A stretch of 26,386 bases of DNA, taken from NCBI RefSeq assembly GCF_004010195.1, contig NC_057718.1, positions 83,558,503 to 83,584,888 of the forward strand. Reading direction: 5' to 3'. The position numbers and the translations under genes were made by a program. Shown here piece by piece: positions 3,191 through 20,862 of this stretch; the stretch's first letter is position 1; each line of letters opens with the position of its first letter. This DNA is from Chiloscyllium plagiosum (Eukaryota). The notes under the pieces were generated by a model. It saw only the letters and a list, made by a program, of their open reading frames with translations. It was not told the DNA's origin and did not search any database.

Positions 3191-3680
3191 GCACTTTACA
3201 AAGTCGATAAACCTTGGCGCTGGAAAGAACACAACAGGTCAGGCAGCATCCGAGGAACAAGAGAATGGACATTTTGAGCAGGACTCTTCTTCAAGACTGG
3301 GGAGGGGAAAGGAGGTTGAGGGGTTGCCCTATAGCTTAAAGATTTGTACCTGTTTTGAATCTGAAGGTGACGAGTAGGTGGACATACATATATTTCATTA
3401 GCCTGTTCAGACATGTTATGGTATACCTCTCGAGCAGGTGGGACTTAAAGCTGAGCCTTCTGGATCAAAGATAGGGATAAGAGCCCCCATTTTTTTTCTC
3501 CCCCCATCTCTCAATCCCCTTCCCCACCCCAGTCCTGAAGAAGGGTCCTGCCCGAAACGTCAACTCTCTTGCCTCTTGGATGCTGCCTGACCTGCTGTGC
3601 CCTTTCCAGCACCATACTTTATCAACTCTGATTTCTCCAGCATCTACGGCCTCCGTTGTCTCCTAGCCGCACTTTACAAA
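3191..3680. mobile_element. Fold-back Penelope-like insertion with 12-bp target duplication and a captured core
   Basis: GCACTTTACAAA at 3191-3202 and 3669-3680; inverted arm ~3203-3332, forward arm ~3489-3668, unrelated core 3334-3488. Confidence 0.85.
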
Positions 3681-5440: not shown

Positions 5441-6076
5441 AAAAAACAGTTCTGTCCCTACTTTTTTCTACCCAGACACGTTTTGCAAACGTCTCCTGTT
5501 AAAATTTTCTATTTTACACAAGCCAGACCTGGGTGGGAACAAAAGATTTTCTTCCCCAAGGGCGTCACTGGGATTTTGACAACAGATTTGTTGACTTTCG
5601 TGTTGGTTCTACGCCGACTTCGTTACTTCAAGAGAAAAAAACCGAATGACAATTTAGAGTTTTTTTTGGTGTGGGGGGTGGGGGATCTGAACTCGCAAAT
5701 TGCGACTGGCCCTGTAGCCACAATACTAACCGGATCCAGCCTGAAATTCCCACACTAGGAAGAGTGGCGGAGGCCAGGAAGGGAGCAAGTTTTAAGCAAT
5801 CTCAGGCCTTATGGACGTAAATATTTTTAAAATTATGAAAACAGAGACAACCAACGCAGTCGCGCTAAGGCTGCAACCCTCCCCGAGATAAACAAGTCAG
5901 TAACTAACCCCCTCCCCCCTCCAGAGCGGGAGGAAGGGCAGTCCCTTCAGCTCAGGCACGGTGGCGGCTCTCTCCCCTGAGGGGGGTCAAAGGGTCCGGG
6001 GACCCCCTCACTCCCACTCCCACAACAGGCCATTCTACCCGCTCGGGCCTACTACGTCCTGGTGTCGTACACAAAC

Positions 6077-6184
6077 CTTGTAAACGTCGCCGTAGGTGCC
6101 GCTCCCGATCCTCTGGATCAGCTCGAAGTCCTCCTGCGGGTTCCTCCGGGACAGGTCGAAGCTTCCCTGAGAGTGGGCAGACAT
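6077..6184 (-). CDS. MAP4K3: First coding exon of MAP4K3 (GLK, STE20/GCK-I family kinase)
   Basis: Minus strand reads GCCACC-ATG (strong Kozak), then [36 protein letters not shown] (36 codons), then a phase-0 donor AAG|GTTTGT at 6076. [28 protein letters not shown] matches the vertebrate MAP4K3 N-terminus including the GxGxxG loop. Too short to appear in the ORF track. Confidence 0.95.
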
Positions 6185-6544: not shown

Positions 6545-6973
6545 CTGTCTGAGGCAAATGCACAAATCCACATAGATTATTAAAGTGTCTGTACTGTGTC
6601 CAAGACAAATGCATATACGTTTTAAATGTTTTTACTGTGTCCAAGGCAAATGCACGTATGCATATAAGTTATACATGTTTTGCTGTGTCCAAGGCAAATA
6701 CACATATCAATATAAATTTAAAATGTTTTTACTGTGTTTAAGGCAAATGCACACATGCATATAAATTATAAATGTTTTTACTGTGTCCAAGGCAAATGCA
6801 CACATTCATATAAGTTATAAATGTTTTGCTGTGTCCGAGGCAAATACACACCAATATAAATTAAAAATGTTTTTACTGTGTTTAAGGCAAATGCGCACAT
6901 GCATATAAATTATGAATGGTTTTACTGTATCCAAGACAAATTGACACTTCCATATAGATTATAAATATTTGTA
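6545..6973. repeat. AT-rich minisatellite, ~48-49-bp unit, 9 copies
   Basis: Units start at 6545, 6594, 6635, 6683, 6732, 6781, 6829, 6876 and 6925; consensus approximately CTGTGTCCAAGGCAAATGCACACATGCATATAAATTATAAATGTTTTTA. Confidence 0.93.
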
Positions 6974-11808: not shown

Positions 11809-12789
11809 GGGTAATGGACATTGACCTGCAAAGTTGGTATTTGGTCACACACCAATTGGACATTAAGGAAGTAAAACCTTTTACTTTTCTGATTTAGGGC
11901 AGAGTGAACAAGTGATGTGTATGCAATCACTGAAATCTTACATCTTGGCAAAGCCTGCATTCCAGCAAAGCATAATGTTGACTTTTTGTGCTTCTTTCTA
12001 GCAACAGGGAATTAAGTATAATGAATAGAGAAATATAATGAATATTGAAAAACACAGAGCAGCCATTTCAATGTATCAAATACTTCCAAATGCAGCCTGG
12101 AGGAGACAGGTGCATAAACGTTTATCACCAGAATCACTTCAGCTACTAGCAATATGGTCCAGGTCTTGTTCTAGTTCTGCAGTTTTGGTTGCAGCACATG
12201 GCAGATTTTGGTAAAGATGCCCTTAGGAAAATAAAGAAGCCTCAGGCACTTGTCTGAGCTGAAGTTCAGATAGGAAACCTGTCCCTGACCACTCTCTGCA
12301 ATGGGCCCCTCTCTGCCTCCATTTTCCAGCAGCTTTTCCTGTTTTGCTCTGTTTCCCTCTTCCAGATTTCATTCTACAGTATAGGCTAAACCGCACATAA
12401 TAGCTCGCTAATAATTGTGAAGATTTTCCTTTGTGTTGCCACAGGTTATACAGCAGGTAGACTGAGCAGGTAGTTATAAAGATTTGGATGGGAACCCTTC
12501 ACAACAGAGCCCTACCCATCTTAAATCAAATAAATGTTCAGTTTAGGCAAAAATTATGAAGTTGAAGTGTCAGACATCTGAGGTATTATTACTTCATGTT
12601 GTTACACTATACATATATACATTGACCTCAATTTTATTGAGTGACAGGAAAGGTGTTTTGCATGCAGTGGGCACTCCACTAAGGGAAATTCCTTACTGGT
12701 AGTAATTTTGTGGCTACAGTGAAGGAAACTGAATAGAAAATTGTGACAATGCTGCTTTGGCCCTTTAAGTTGATGCAGGTTGAAATAAT

Positions 12790-13890
12790 ACCCTCCCAGT
12801 GCTCTATATTGGTTTTCCCAGTTATTAGCACATCATCCAGACAAATGGCAACCTGGGGTAGCCCTTGTAAAATATTCTCCATGGTCCGTTGGAAAAAGGT
12901 GCATACTGATGATATCCCAAATGACAGTCTTGTACATTGGAGTAAACCCTTATGGGTGTTAATTGTACGTGCTTCAGGAGCTTCTCATCCAGTTGTAATT
13001 GTAGGTAGGCATGACTCATGTCCAGCTCCGTAAAGGATAGCCAACCCCCTCACCAACTCTGTGTACAAGTCCTCTATGCGAGGGATCGGGTATTTATCAA
13101 GCTGTGAGATGCGATTTACCATTTGCTTAAAAATTGCCACAAAGGCGAACTGAGCCATCAAGCTTCACTATCAGAATGACCAGCTGTTCATTCTATGAAC
13201 TGCACTGGTTGGATGGTTACTTTGCTCTCCAGCCTCCTGATTTCTGCCTCTACTTTCACCCACATGGCAAATGGCACCAGGTGGGCCTTGCAAAATCTCA
13301 GAATTGCTTCCTGGTCAACATGCAATGTGGCTTTGGCCCCTTTGATAGTCCCAAGCCCTTCCTGAAAAATGCCTGGGTATTTCACTAGAACTTCACTGAG
13401 GCAGCCATTTTCTAATTGAAAAATGTTGAGCCAATCCAGGCAAATCTTTTCCAACCAATTCCACCCCAATAGGCCTGGGCCTGAGCCTTTCACTTCCATC
13501 AGTGGTTACTGCACCAGCTACTTCTCATAGGAGACTGGAGCTGAAGTCATACCCTTAATCTGCAATGGTTCCCCAGTATATGTTCTCAGTCTGGCTGAGG
13601 TCTTGTGCAAATGTAAGGGTTGGAGTCCCAAGTGAATCTTGTTAACGACAGATTCTGCAATCACAGATACAGCTGCGCCAGCATCAATCTCCAAGAGAAA
13701 TTGGTGACCATTGAACCAAACATTAATTTTAATCTGTAGGGGCAGGCAGGTAGGCCGTCCTTAGCGCTGTCAACCTGGGCAGGTACTGGGATGTTGCTAA
13801 GCAATTTGCAATTTCCCACAGATAAGGGAATTTTCCAGGCCGAGGCTCGGCTTTGTTGTGGGCTTGCTGAGGATCCCACTCTCATCGCCA
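12790..13890 (-). mobile_element. Decayed Ty3/Gypsy internal region (protease and part of RT; gag largely missing)
   Basis: Minus-strand translations: IKINVWFNGHQFLLEIDAGAAVSVIAE...LRTYTGEPLQ (protease, DTG changed to DAG), GSGPGLLGWNWL, MSHAYLQLQLDE, and MENILQGLPQVAICLDDVLITG (YLDD changed to CLDD). Contains stops and frameshifts. Confidence 0.9.
13873..13890 (-). promoter_or_regulatory. Primer-binding site, tRNA-Ser(GCT)-like
   Basis: Minus strand TGGCGATGAGAGTGGGAT lies one base after ...TTTCA (LTR end at 13892). It is close to the complement of a tRNA-Ser(GCT) 3' end (ATCCCACCCTCGTCG-CCA, from memory; 16/18). Confidence 0.7.
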
Positions 13891-13891
13891 C

Positions 13892-14022
13892 TGAAAAGCT
13901 ACACAGAGGTCAATACCCCATCACCAAGTCACCCTTCACTTACTTGTGCGCAGTATTCTGGCTGTGGTCAGCCAGCTCAGAGTCAATCCCCTGAACTGAG
14001 GACGTTATAAATTCCCTATTAA
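13892..14022 (-). mobile_element. 3' part of the Gypsy 5' LTR
   Basis: Ends in CA next to the PBS and is interrupted at 14023 by a poly(A)-tailed insertion; 13958-14022 recurs at 16021-16085. Confidence 0.7.
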
Positions 14023-14058
14023 TTTTTTTAAGTTTTATTAACCAGTACAAATTACAAA

Positions 14059-14308
14059 CTGTTTACATGAACAGCGCTGAAAATGTGTTGCTGGAAAAGC
14101 GCAGCAGATGAGGCAGCATCCAAGGAGCAGGAGAATCGACATTTCGGGCATGAGCCCTTCAGATTTCTGAAGAAGGGCTTATGCCCGAAACGTCGATTCT
14201 CCTGTTCCCTGGATGCTGCCTGACCTGCTGCGCTTTTCCAGCAACACATTTTCAGCTCTGATCTCCAGCATCTGCAGTCCTCACTTTCTCCTGTTTACAT
14301 GAACAGCG
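14059..14308. mobile_element. Fold-back Penelope-like insertion with 18-bp direct repeat
   Basis: CTGTTTACATGAACAGCG at 14059-14076 and 14291-14308; inverted arm ~14076-14160, forward arm ~14167-14292. Confidence 0.9.
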
Positions 14309-14539
14309 ATATACAAGAAACAGCAATTTACAGGGGAAAGGGGCAGCAAAGCCAAACCCCAAACCCCAATGTACAATCAGTTCACAGGGAAACGAGGGCG
14401 AACCTTGAATCCCAGCTTACATTAATAAAGGAGGAAACAGTAAATGCAATCACATACAGACAGTCCGATAAGCCAAACAATAAAAACAGTGTATATATCA
14501 TAGACACCCCCGGCAACCCAGCAAACCACCCATCCCTCC

Positions 14540-15170
14540 CACCTTCTGGCCACTCAAAGGCAGCCCGCCCTTCCGGCTCTCAGACTGCCCATGCTCCTTC
14601 TGGCTCTCAGTCCGCCCTGACACACCTTCCGACCACCTCTCAGACAGTCCGTCCTGTTTCCACACCGCCCCCCAAGATCAGGACAGCCTACCCACCTTTT
14701 GGCTTCCCTAAACATCCTCTCGCGCCTTCCGGCCACTTGTAGGACAGCCCGCCCCATTACCTGCCCAGGTTGACAGCGCTAAGGACGGCCTACCCGCCTG
14801 CCCCTACAGACCATCTGGCTCTCACCCACCCTGATACACCAGCTAGCTTGTGGACTGCCCTGACAACTTTTCGACCACCTCTAGGACACACAGGGACGAC
14901 GAAGCACAGGGCAGCCCATTAGCCTTCTGGATCTCAGACTGCCCCAATGCACCTTCTAGCTCCCAGCTGCTCTGTCACACCTTCCAGCCACCTCAAGGAC
15001 AGTCCATCCCGATTACCCCTTCTCGGGACGACAGCGCTCAGAACGGCTGACCCAGTTTCTGGCTTCGGGGCAACTGGCATCAGGGTAACCTGCCCACCTT
15101 CCAGCCTTCGGGGCAGCCTACCTACCTTCTGGTTCACAGGACAGCCTGCCCACCCTCCAGCTGTCAGGCT
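14540..15170. repeat. Degenerate C-rich minisatellite (~27-29-bp motif, approximately CCTTCYGGCTCTCAGACWGCCC)
   Basis: The motif recurs near 14542, 14569, 14596, 14625, 14725, 14923, 14952, 14980, 15097 and 15125. Confidence 0.7.
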
Positions 15171-15406
15171 GAAAGCTTTTGGGGCGACCTATGAGCCTCC
15201 CACCTCACAGTGAGGCCTGCCAAACGCCAACAAACAGAGTCCTTTCTGCTACACAGAGACCATTACCATAAACAGTTCTCTTCAAAATGCAGAGTCCATT
15301 CCCAGGAACAGAGTCCACTCCAGATACAGAATGCACTGTCAGAGATAGAGTCCACAACCAAAAGCAGAGTCCACTCCTGAAGGCAGCAGGTACACACCCC
15401 ACAGCA

Positions 15407-15633
15407 CACACACAAGTGTTCAGTCTCCATAGAGGCCTGGTTTATCCACAGGGAACCAGGCCCACTTACAGGAACAGAGTACATGCAGTTAACTCACAGG
15501 GGTTTGGTCCACTCCCAAACTCCAGGAAAGAGCGAATGCTCACCTCCCAACACACACACACACACACACAGGTGTTCAGTCTTTACAGAGGCCTAGTCCA
15601 CCAACAAAGGGGCAGGCCTACCCACAGGAACAG
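15407..15633. repeat. ~70-bp diverged direct repeat plus (CA)n tract
   Basis: cacacaca(a/g)gtgttcagtct...agaggcct...caggc...acaggaacag at ~15407-15478 and ~15563-15633; (CA)n at 15550-15570. Confidence 0.75.
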
Positions 15634-15860
15634 CTCATCTGGAAAGGTGCATTTTCTCACAGGGGCTCAGTCCAAATGCCATAAAAGTGAAAACACATAC
15701 AAAAACAAAGAAAACCAAAGTGCAAGGCCTAAGCTCTGCCACAATATCAGCACAGTCCTTTTCTCAAGTAAAAGAAAACGAATAACACACAAGCCAGTGA
15801 AACAACAGTTCCCTAATAAGAACTGAATTACACCCGTAACACATTGACTGTGTAAGTCAG

Positions 15861-15935
15861 CCAGTTTAGAAGTCAGGATCTAGATGAGAGTGGTGCTGGA
15901 AAAGCACAGCAGGTTTTGCCCAGTTTAGAAGTCAG
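15861..15935 (-). mobile_element. 43-bp Penelope-like fragment with 16-bp target duplication
   Basis: CCAGTTTAGAAGTCAG at 15861-15876 and 15920-15935 flanks gagtggtgctggaaaagcacagcaggt, which is shared with the arms at 14090 and 20595. Confidence 0.75.
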
Positions 15936-16071
15936 TCCTCAATAGAAAGGAATACCAGTTAACAGCCAATTTAGGAGTCAGGTTTCCCAAAAAAACAGAA
16001 ACCAACAGCATCAGAACACACTGGCTGTGGCCAGCCAGCTCAAAGCCAGTCTCACAAACTGAGGAGATTCT

Positions 16072-16880
16072 AAATCCCCTGTTAATTTTTTTTTTCATTT
16101 TTTTTTTAACCCCCACACTACCACCTAAGTGCGGTAGTGCTTATTTTATCCCCAGCACCCATGGTGTGTGTGAAATCCCCTGTTAATTTTTTTTTTTCTT
16201 TTTTTTAAATTTAACCCCCACACTACCACCTAAGTGCGGTAGTGCTTATTTTATCCCCAGCACCCATGGTGTGTGTGTGCAGGTGTGAGACACAGTGAAA
16301 GACACAAAGTGCACCAATCTTTATTCAATTTCCACCACCAGGAAGATAGGAAAACACCCGGGTGGCCAGTGACAAACACTGCCCTTCACAGCAAAGGGCA
16401 GTGCTGTGTGATCAAAAACAGTGAAGGGGAGGGTAGGGACTAAATCAAAATAAAATTGGAGGGAGAAATGATGCACTCCAATCCCTGCGGCGCCCACACT
16501 CCTGTTTATATATTTTTTTATTATTTTTTTTTGGCGTGGCTCGGTTGGGCCCAGAGGGGTTTCTTTTTTTTTCTTTTTTATTAAACCCCCACACAATCCC
16601 CTGTTAATTTTTTTTCTTTCTTTTTTTTTGTTTATTTTTTTTTATTTTAACCCCCACACTACCACCTAAGTGCGGTAGTGCTTATTACATTCCTGTGTAT
16701 ATTTTTTCTTTTTTTTCTTTTTTTTTTGTTTATTTTTTTTTATTTTAACCCCCACACTACCACCTAAGTGCGGTAGTGCTTATTTTATCCCCAGCACCCA
16801 TGGTGTGTGTGTGTGCAGGTGTGAGACACAGTGAAAGACACAAGGTGCACCAATCTTTATTCAATTAATCCCCTGTTAAT
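16072..16880 (-). mobile_element. Tandem stack of 5'-truncated Tx1-like LINE 3' ends at one target site
   Basis: Five poly(T)-aacccccacac ends (16108, 16213, 16584, 16649, 16747); AATCCCCTGTTAAT four times (16073, 16174, 16595, 16867); the longest copy encodes WAPQGLECIISPSNFILI* (16496-16440, minus), resembling a Tx1 ORF2 C-terminus. Confidence 0.85.
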
Positions 16881-16972
16881 ACTGGTCAGCCAGGGCTTCT
16901 TTACTGGTCCAGGTTAACAACCCCAATCAAGGATCTCGTAGTCAACAAGATCCACCTAGTTCCAATCACTAT
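16880..16972 (-). mobile_element. Probable 5' (U3) part of the interrupted Gypsy LTR
   Basis: Continues the target sequence after the last duplication and contains CCAAT motifs; a terminal TG is not preserved. Confidence 0.5.
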
Positions 16973-17759
16973 TTAGGTGTTGCAGTCCAGCAGCAGTATC
17001 TTATTCTGCTCCTGAGTGAATGTAGGAAGCAGTATTGGGACTTAAAATATCTAAACAAGGCTGATGCCAGAAGATCAACTGAAATCAGATTCCTGGTGAA
17101 AAATCACAACAATGTCCCTTCCTTTTAGATCTCTCTTAAACAGCACCAAAAGCTGGTGACATTCTTAAAAAAGCCTTTGACACATTTGGTATGACATTTT
17201 GGTATTTTTGTCTTCACTTAGTGACACCCATGCACGATTCTGTCTATTCTAAATTAGAAACTATCTATTTTGAATCTCTTTCCCAAGGACATTTAACTCC
17301 TCCTCGTCTCCACCTCCCCATCAGCCCTTTTTAATCATTAGCTGCAGATTCTCATATGGCAGGCTCTCAAGCTGGCATTTCTCAACAGAGAGGAAGAAAT
17401 GTTTGAACATCAAATTGAAGACTGCCCTTAGGGTATTTCCAAGGTTTTAGAGCATTATGGGCCGAGGCCAAGAATTAGGCAATCTTCCCTTTTTCCTCAG
17501 ATAATAGAAAATAGAAATACTGTGGAAGTAAAGTTCTTTTAAAATAATAATTGATACAAAATAAAATATATATTTGTACATAACTGAGATGGTGACAAAG
17601 CATGGTTCTGGTCAATTGGAGTCTCAGTGGAAAATGTCTGAAGTTCAAACACAAACATGTTCCCCTTGATAGGCAAATATGTAGTTCTCCATTATAAGGC
17701 ATTAACAAGAATAAAAACAATCCCATAGCACAGAATCAAATGCAAAAAACACAAGGAAA

Positions 17760-20464: not shown

Positions 20465-20862
20465 GCTGAGCTATGCTGCACTCTCAGGGTAAGTACTTTT
20501 TGGATGAAACTTTAATTTGAGGCCTCTTCTATCCTTTCAGGTGTCCTCAGCAGAAGATTCCATGACATTATCTGAAGAAGCTGAAAATGTGTTGCTGGAA
20601 AAGCGCAGCAGGTCAGGCAGCATCCAAGGAACAGGAGAATCGACGTTTCGGGCATAAGCCCTTCTTCAGGCTTCTTCGGGCTTATGCCCGAAACGTCGAT
20701 TCTCCTGTTCCTTGGATGCTGCCTGACCTGCTGCGCTTTTCCAGCAACACATTTTCAGCTCTGATCTCCAGCATCTGTAGCCCTCACTTTCTCACATTAT
20801 CTGAAGAAGAGCAGGGGAGTTCTCCCTGGTGTCCCGACTGATATTTATCATACTACTAACAA
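20465..20862 (+). mobile_element. DeuSINE (SacSINE1/AmnSINE1-like) remnant interrupted by a Penelope-like insertion
   Basis: After removing the insertion it reads tttggatgaaactttaatttgaggcc...tcaggtg...agattccatgacattatctgaagaagagcaggggagttctccctggtgtcc...atatttatc, resembling the Deu domain. Confidence 0.7.
20565..20809. mobile_element. Fold-back Penelope-like insertion, perfect 83-bp inverted repeat, 16-bp target duplication
   Basis: ACATTATCTGAAGAAG at 20565-20580 and 20794-20809; arms 20579-20661 and 20678-20760 are exact reverse complements. Confidence 0.92.

Follow-up and report, generated by a model that had tools for sequence, protein, structure and literature searches.

How did the two halves of a single LTR come to be separated by a stack of 3'-end fragments that are bordered, one after another, by the same short word? 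In the window, by which we mean the whole stretch of 26,386 nucleotides that was analysed, the 14-mer AATCCCCTGTTAAT occurs exactly at positions 16073, 16174, 16595 and 16867, as the original prediction had read from the sequence alone, and this is more than chance would give: with up to two mismatches allowed, six matches were found against 0.29 expected, and six were reached in 0 of 100 shuffles. Likewise borne out was the reading that the first three copies are followed by poly(T) and the 3' end of an element, with tails and 5' ends all different, and that the fourth continues into the U3 of an LTR-like repeat. A fifth, diverged copy, overlooked at that stage, is joined to the remainder of the same LTR, the two halves of which are split by ~2.85 kb of inserts that include a second element of 2 kb, referred to here as element X (Table 1).

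With a probability of about 0.7, we favour a reading in which the locus holds stacked 3' ends of a young Tx1-like LINE, together with an older passenger, at one TATA-like site of an LTR. They would have accumulated as target-primed reverse transcription started time and again from the site copy on the U3 side, with newcomers pairing with the resident copy.

Table 1. The split LTR, its target-site copies and its inserts, in window coordinates
Feature	Position	Strand	Remarks
Internal region of the host element, Gypsy-type	12750..13891	-	decayed, internally deleted; left end approximate
R/U5 half of the 5' LTR	13892..14009	-	family A, ~225 bp, TG...CA
Oldest target-site copy	14010..14023	-	2 mismatches; then poly(T) of element X
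Element X	14024..16072	-	older non-coding passenger at the same site
Target site copy 1	16073..16086	-
Insert A	16087..16173	-	tail and 65 nt of LINE 3' end
Target site copy 2	16174..16187	-
Insert B	16188..16594	-	compound cassette; recurring inner junction
Target site copy 3	16595..16608	-
Insert C	16609..16866	-	compound cassette
Target site copy 4	16867..16880	-	in its native promoter; minus strand reads TATTAA
U3 half of the LTR	16881..16972	-	CCAAT-type boxes, proximal one mutated; 87% to the empty copy L143

The host LTR and the composition of the inserts

Since U3 sequence lies to the right of the array and R/U5 sequence with a PBS-like word (13873-13890) to its left, the array splits a 5' LTR. 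Beyond the PBS-like word, translation reveals pieces resembling aspartyl protease and RT, interrupted by stops and frameshifts; the former matches gag-asp_proteas (PF13975, E 2.7e-4) under the Pfam cut-off, and the RT-like frame of this internal region gave no Pfam match. The host thus presents a TG...CA repeat, a short target-site duplication (TSD) in some of its solo copies, a PBS-like word and protease-like and RT-like sequence downstream, and we take it to be probably of Gypsy type, given the weak Pfam match, with a PBS that we presume to be of the tRNA-Ser kind. Seven empty copies of the LTR measure 210-232 bp and run from TG to CA, with 5-bp flanking repeats that are exact in two of the seven and agree at 4 of 5 bases in one. 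The empty copy L143 aligns to U3 (window 16867-16971), to R/U5 (13921-14026, 75%) and to the head of element X (16018-16089); the repeat-family match to the right of the array ends near 16972, and 39 other best matches stand at 86-90%.

On the sense strand, most LTR copies show a CCAAT box, 22 nt, TATAAA and, 27-29 nt further on, an Inr-like word, where the TATA and Inr readings presume the general consensus sequences. The predicted nick position is inside the TATA-like box, with the CCAAT box 22 nt from it in most copies; in the window LTR the proximal box is mutated (ACTGG instead of ATTGG at 16903).

A contig from a second organism covers U3 and its flank (window 16869-17300) with 12 differences, the array side being outside that contig; judging from these differences, the LTR is likely to be older than the split between the two organisms.

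The inserts had been read as three simple insertions, a description that had to be revised, as two of the three are transduced multi-unit cassettes that recur at other loci. Both B and C are compound and contain foreign site words. Insert B is composed of a 285-nt LINE 3' end with the ORF2 C-terminus, a site word (16498-16511), a 31-nt piece that found no match in the 22 long stretches compared, a tail and a 12-nt stub, whereas insert C is composed of a tail, a 38-nt stub, a site word (16687-16702), a further tail and a 120-nt LINE 3' end. The inner junction of insert B was found at 4 places in the assembly, one of them possibly the other haplotype of the window locus, and the stub of insert C with its foreign site word at 11 places; the recurrence of both cassettes elsewhere indicates that arrays at other loci were read through and copied. 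Insert C is likely the newest insert of the array. The twin tails of insert C are nearly alike in the window, whereas elsewhere the same cassette has unlike tails, which points to some local copying of DNA or to smoothing in the assembly. Among the contigs listed from other sequencing runs, which cover single junctions only (15919-16093, 16468-16554 and 16867-16932), none spans the whole array. A search against Rfam gave no match anywhere in the window.

Element X and other passengers

Element X, the longest stop-free frame of which is 84 aa, has a head resembling the R of LTR-A (16018-16072) and encloses a short inverted-pair repeat at 14069-14292. The element lies at the LTR site, beside LTR R or U3, in 24 of 29 other X copies.

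Inserts that are neither LINE nor X were observed at the same LTR site in L124, L127, L137, L148 and L191, several of them behind a T run, which suggests that other RNAs were mobilised in trans. At L002 and L082, a second recurrent site within element X was encountered, in opposite orientation and with its own regenerated duplication. In L071, a truncated LINE unit is directly preceded at its 5' end by a whole 5S rRNA (1767-1891; Rfam 74 bits) of the same sense, and the two may form a 5S-LINE chimera.

Identity of the inserted LINE

A 32-mer taken from the 3' end of the LINE has 1,926 exact matches in the 3.56-Gb assembly, with 0 for the reversed control, and the best 40 places for a 276-nt LINE piece match at 97-100%. 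Longer copies supply the ORF2 C-terminus; in near-full-length copies, the 5' UTR is rich in repeats, ORF1 includes a CCHC knuckle and ORF2 encodes APE and RT. In matches pieced from different natural copies (L102, L101 and L062), the APE (PF03372, E 7.8e-7) and RT (PF00078, E 1.5e-32) domains are both above the Pfam cut-off, with a weak C-terminal zf-RVT (E 0.02) under it; the CCHC zinc knuckle of ORF1 is visible in L080 and L102, its Pfam zf-CCHC match (E 0.038) also being under the cut-off. An intact single ORF2 was found in none of the 20 long copies fetched, most of which carry runs of N.

The closest relatives of the APE domain are horn shark, skate and sturgeon proteins that bear no family label. 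The nearest family-labelled relative is a 'YTX2 protein' of bichir (39%, E 1.4e-43), and human L1 ORF2p is far more distant (E 1.9e-12, from a smaller library). A poly(A) 3' end, 5' truncation and TSD, features of the Tx1 type, are present as well. The Tx1-like identity proposed in the original prediction is supported by the APE, the RT and the zinc-knuckle ORF1, and from its sequence features the inserted element appears to be a young, Tx1-like LINE. Among eight full-length LINE heads aligned, those of L165, L168 and L172 align with the R of LTR-B and the other five do so partly.

Targeting of the LTR site and its specificity

The forward test comprised all 70 clusters from the first 100 listed matches (contig 1 whole and the start of contig 2), scored against 23 natural empty LTR copies. 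Of these position-ordered clusters, 34 of 70 occupy the LTR site and run in the orientation of the LTR; 28 fell under 'other' and 8 were uncallable owing to gaps or locus ends. One cluster was found in an LTR in the opposite sense and at another position. By simple arithmetic, even 100,000 LTR copies would still be <1% of the genome (the first-look candidates numbered 2,495 and 2,612). In the reverse test, which used the best 30 of ~2,500 candidates and thus a non-random set picked by U3 and site sequence as best-scoring copies, 19 of 29 LTR-A copies were interrupted exactly at the site, 11 with a recognisable LINE; for LTR-B, again from the best 30 of ~2,500 candidates, the site was interrupted in 9 of 29 copies, 7 with LINE (the script counted 11/29, of which visual inspection discarded two as empty copies bearing small deletions). 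The predicted target, the TATA-like box of a Gypsy-type LTR entered in LTR orientation, is therefore upheld by genome-wide enrichment in both directions (34/70 forward, 19/29 and 9/29 reverse). Kojima 2015 regards as target-specific those Tx1 elements with one sequence type in >20% of flanks, and here the share is 34/70.

LTR targeting is real, as a preference rather than as a strict sequence specificity. A strictly sequence-specific LINE places nearly all insertions at one word; here 28 of 70 clusters lie elsewhere, and the suggestion of strict specificity is not sustained. In 20 off-target duplications, chosen by eye from 45 loci run through an automatic TSD finder (which reported no TSD at 20 of the 45 and misread L087 and L092), the duplication is 11-17 bp long, the CCTG word is absent and only the T^A step is common, with A as the next base in 15 of 20. 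Occupied LTR sites may also diverge far from the word, as in L025, L094, L064 and L117. Together, these off-target and divergent sites indicate a loose T^A nick and a preference that needs more than the word. The contention that the nick is not the generic L1 one does not hold either, as a T^A step fits the L1-like nick consensus.

These observations bear on a model in which the endonuclease strictly reads a word of ~14 bases and dispersed masters give rise to each unit independently. Such a model would account for about half of the clusters being at one position in two related LTR families, for the use of the same position by element X, and for two unrelated repeats, C and D, which have a similar CCAAT-TATA layout and another word and are empty in 29 of 29 copies each. 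However, the divergent occupied sites and the off-target duplications just described argue against it, and we consider it unlikely.

Alternatively, promoter architecture or bound factors, with the CCAAT box ~22 nt from the TATA nick, may set the site for a loose T^A endonuclease. In accordance with this, ATTGG is found 20-24 nt from the nick at 3 of 20 off-target sites against 0.14 expected, repeats C and D have two matches each at or near their TATA position (L028 and L073; L118 and L087), and both LTR families share the arrangement of CCAAT, 22 nt, TATAAA and Inr-like word, again by sequence against the general consensus. Yet repeats C and D are empty in all of the 29 copies of each, the spacing is absent at 17 of 20 off-target sites, and the window LTR received young inserts with its proximal CCAAT mutated. 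As the determinant of the site, promoter architecture is conceivable at less than even odds, and promoter layout as a sufficient cause was rejected on account of the empty repeats C and D. Site choice appears to be governed by more than the 14-base word, and promoter context probably plays a part.

Besides the two LTR families, two repeat families, represented by loci L207-L236 and L237-L266, were seen to have the CCAAT-22 nt-TATA layout together with several CCAAT boxes.

Growth of the arrays beside U3

Arrays are common: of the 95 loci parsed, 65 contain at least two units. Private changes are more numerous in the unit on the R side than in the one on the U3 side in 33 of 42 arrays, and less numerous in 7 (overall 246/8007 on the R side versus 83/7909 on the U3 side), which indicates that units were added over time beside U3 and the promoter. 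Serial insertion with regeneration of the target duplication, as put forward in the original prediction, is supported by these data.

Repeated target-primed reverse transcription would explain this order in the following manner. The LINE endonuclease would nick the plus strand at the T^A step of the TATA box (here GTTAAT^AC) and prime on poly(A), and a second-strand break ~14 nt away would give rise to the duplication and leave U3 and TATA intact beside the newest insert, which is the structure seen at the locus. New units would go on being added on the U3 side, in line with the statistics above. RNAs read through from arrays elsewhere, with the LTR promoter as their putative maker, are carried along as multi-unit cassettes, as the recurring ones in the assembly show. 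Finally, a strand of the resident copy would pair with the homologous new cDNA and prime the second strand, so that the old truncation point is inherited; at empty LTRs, the LTR-R-like head of full-length copies (LTR-B R) and of X (LTR-A R) may serve as the pairing arm. For L1, the cDNA is known to pair with endogenous copies.

In a more far-reaching form, which we offer tentatively and would not bet on, promoter context would guide the LINE to the TATA box of an LTR promoter used by polymerase II, the R-derived head would act as a homology arm, and the self-templating arrays so built would inherit truncation points and become promoter-driven source elements.

Shared 5' junctions within arrays

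Units of one array frequently end at the same 5' junction: 143 of 1,051 unit pairs within loci, which are not independent of each other inside one locus, share it, versus 8 of 63,210 pairs between loci, and such sharing was found at 36 of the 65 loci with arrays. The three inserts of the window have no common junction, and junction inheritance is not visible there. Microhomology to the site word alone was rejected as an explanation, because a common junction is seen in only 8 of 63,210 pairs between loci even though the word is nearly identical there. Likewise, independent insertion from dispersed masters leaves this 1,000-fold difference within versus between loci unexplained, the near-identity of the word notwithstanding.

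A model in which one RNP or one local transcript made all units with the same junction, through repeated priming or through resident RNA being copied back in cis, was first favoured. It would be compatible with an identical 5' end despite differing tails and 3' starts, and with arrays acting as RNA sources, but it predicts near-identical bodies and private variants common throughout. At L012, L092, L094 and L109, the junction is common and yet dozens of positions differ (in L109 the common junction includes 15 private extra bases); overall, 6 of 136 same-junction pairs differ by at most 1% and 75 of 136 by at least 4%. In addition, rare-variant sharing, determined on one pair per locus at 45 loci against a background of ~1-2% and with the 0-10 nt bin dropped as inflated by alignment ends, falls with distance from the junction, from 9/35 at 11-60 nt through 11/59 at 61-150 nt to 5/78, near background, beyond 150 nt. 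Body differences and variant decay rule the model out as the general explanation and leave it very improbable; it is largely refuted for most pairs and may apply to the few near-identical ones.

The same data weigh on the possibility that, after one or two insertions, most of the growth of the arrays was due to DNA-level events (slippage, unequal exchange or gene conversion). TRF reports tandem repeats at 16072-16277 (2.0 copies at 95%) and 16608-16784 (1.8 copies at 96%), junctions are common within loci, the twin tails of insert C are alike, and some pairs look like plain duplications, with 6 of 136 near-identical (such unit pairs occur in L005 and L106) and 9 tail-duplicate pairs. Counting against the favoured reading, same-junction pairs differ somewhat less than random pairs do even at a distance from the junction (5.3-5.6% versus 7.0%). 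On the other hand, the bodies are 4-6% apart, with about one third of the differences at family-polymorphic sites, and rare-variant sharing falls off away from the junction. Among 97 successive pairs, the tail is common in 4, the 3' start is common in 37 and a different 3' start is found in 60; the 97 extra junction copies thus stand against 9 duplicated tails, a comparison weakened by the fast mutation of T tails. The age polarity toward U3 and the presence of the same duplication on unrelated passengers likewise speak against DNA-level growth, which as the main process is already disfavoured and appears to us improbable.

A new unit is often truncated at exactly the same point as the copy before it, probably owing to pairing between the two during insertion. 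These results suggest that homology with the resident copy guides the joining of a newcomer, which, we infer, takes from the resident no more than the junction and a stretch some tens of bases long.

Relation to known systems

The targeting habit is already known for the Tx1 clade, and the putative inheritance of junctions is the added point. The main text of Kojima 2015 (PMC4494074) describes a preference of two crocodilian families, Tx1-8_Crp and Tx1-4_AMi, for LTR retrotransposons, and the present Tx1-type LINE, which favours specific LTR retrotransposons, is akin to them; that main text does not give the position within the LTR elements, and its supplements may show the same type of site, whereas here a single TATA-like-box position is used, with 31-66% of the sampled LTRs occupied. 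The same text reports that Tx1-Mar and SINEU share a target in Mariner-N4, with tandem insertions around the TSD. As with these elements and with Xenopus Tx1 in Tx1D, a LINE and a non-autonomous passenger share a target inside another transposon, the TSD is sandwiched by tandem insertions and heads come from another transcript (U1/U2 there). In contrast to those systems, where the target is a DNA transposon, the target here is an LTR, the head resembles the host R and the passenger is a 2-kb non-coding element (PMC4494074).

The passages of Stage and Eickbush 2009 (PMC2718515) on ancestral-type R1 of Drosophila describe a 14-bp TSD, tandem arrays that arise when a new copy enters the TSD at the 5' end of the resident one, and off-target insertions, and in all three respects the present arrays are similar; for melanogaster-type R1, cDNA annealing to target DNA is described as giving precise 5' junctions. 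R1, however, belongs to another clade, targets 28S rDNA and anneals via target sequence on its RNA, whereas here the truncation point of the resident would be inherited. That a new TE insertion preserves the target and makes a new one, leading to tandem dimers, was set out in the relevant sections of McGurk and Barbash 2018 (PMC5932611), and the arrays resemble such double insertions in that the target is kept and renewed each time. There, distinct 5' truncations mark independent insertion, whereas here likely independent insertions often share a truncation. In the literature searched, which covered few subscription journals and not Repbase, no paper turned up that describes this shark-type family, a Tx1 element from a shark at the TATA box of an LTR, or the inheritance of truncation points, and none of the passages of PMC11702581 that were consulted deals with pairing with a resident copy.

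If junction inheritance is true, identical 5' truncations in tandem LINE arrays can no longer be read as DNA duplication, and homology on the 5' side would steer how a Tx1-type element is joined, with consequences for LINE-based gene insertion. The arrays offer a natural data set for LINE 5'-end joining, second-strand priming and the promoter-context aiming of an APE-type LINE, and with a third to two thirds of the sampled LTRs interrupted at the TATA-like box, they constitute a strong case of promoter parasitism between elements.

Other features of the window

The first coding exon of a kinase gene, which we presume to be MAP4K3-like, was recognised by translation at 6035-6184 on the minus strand, ~10 kb downstream of the LTR and in the same sense. 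Just upstream of this exon, a tandem repeat with a 49-bp unit and ~7.6 copies extends over 6562-6970. A short repeat family, often arranged as near-perfect inverted pairs, was observed at 20579-20795, 1192-1316 and 3199-3664, as well as at 14069-14292 within element X.
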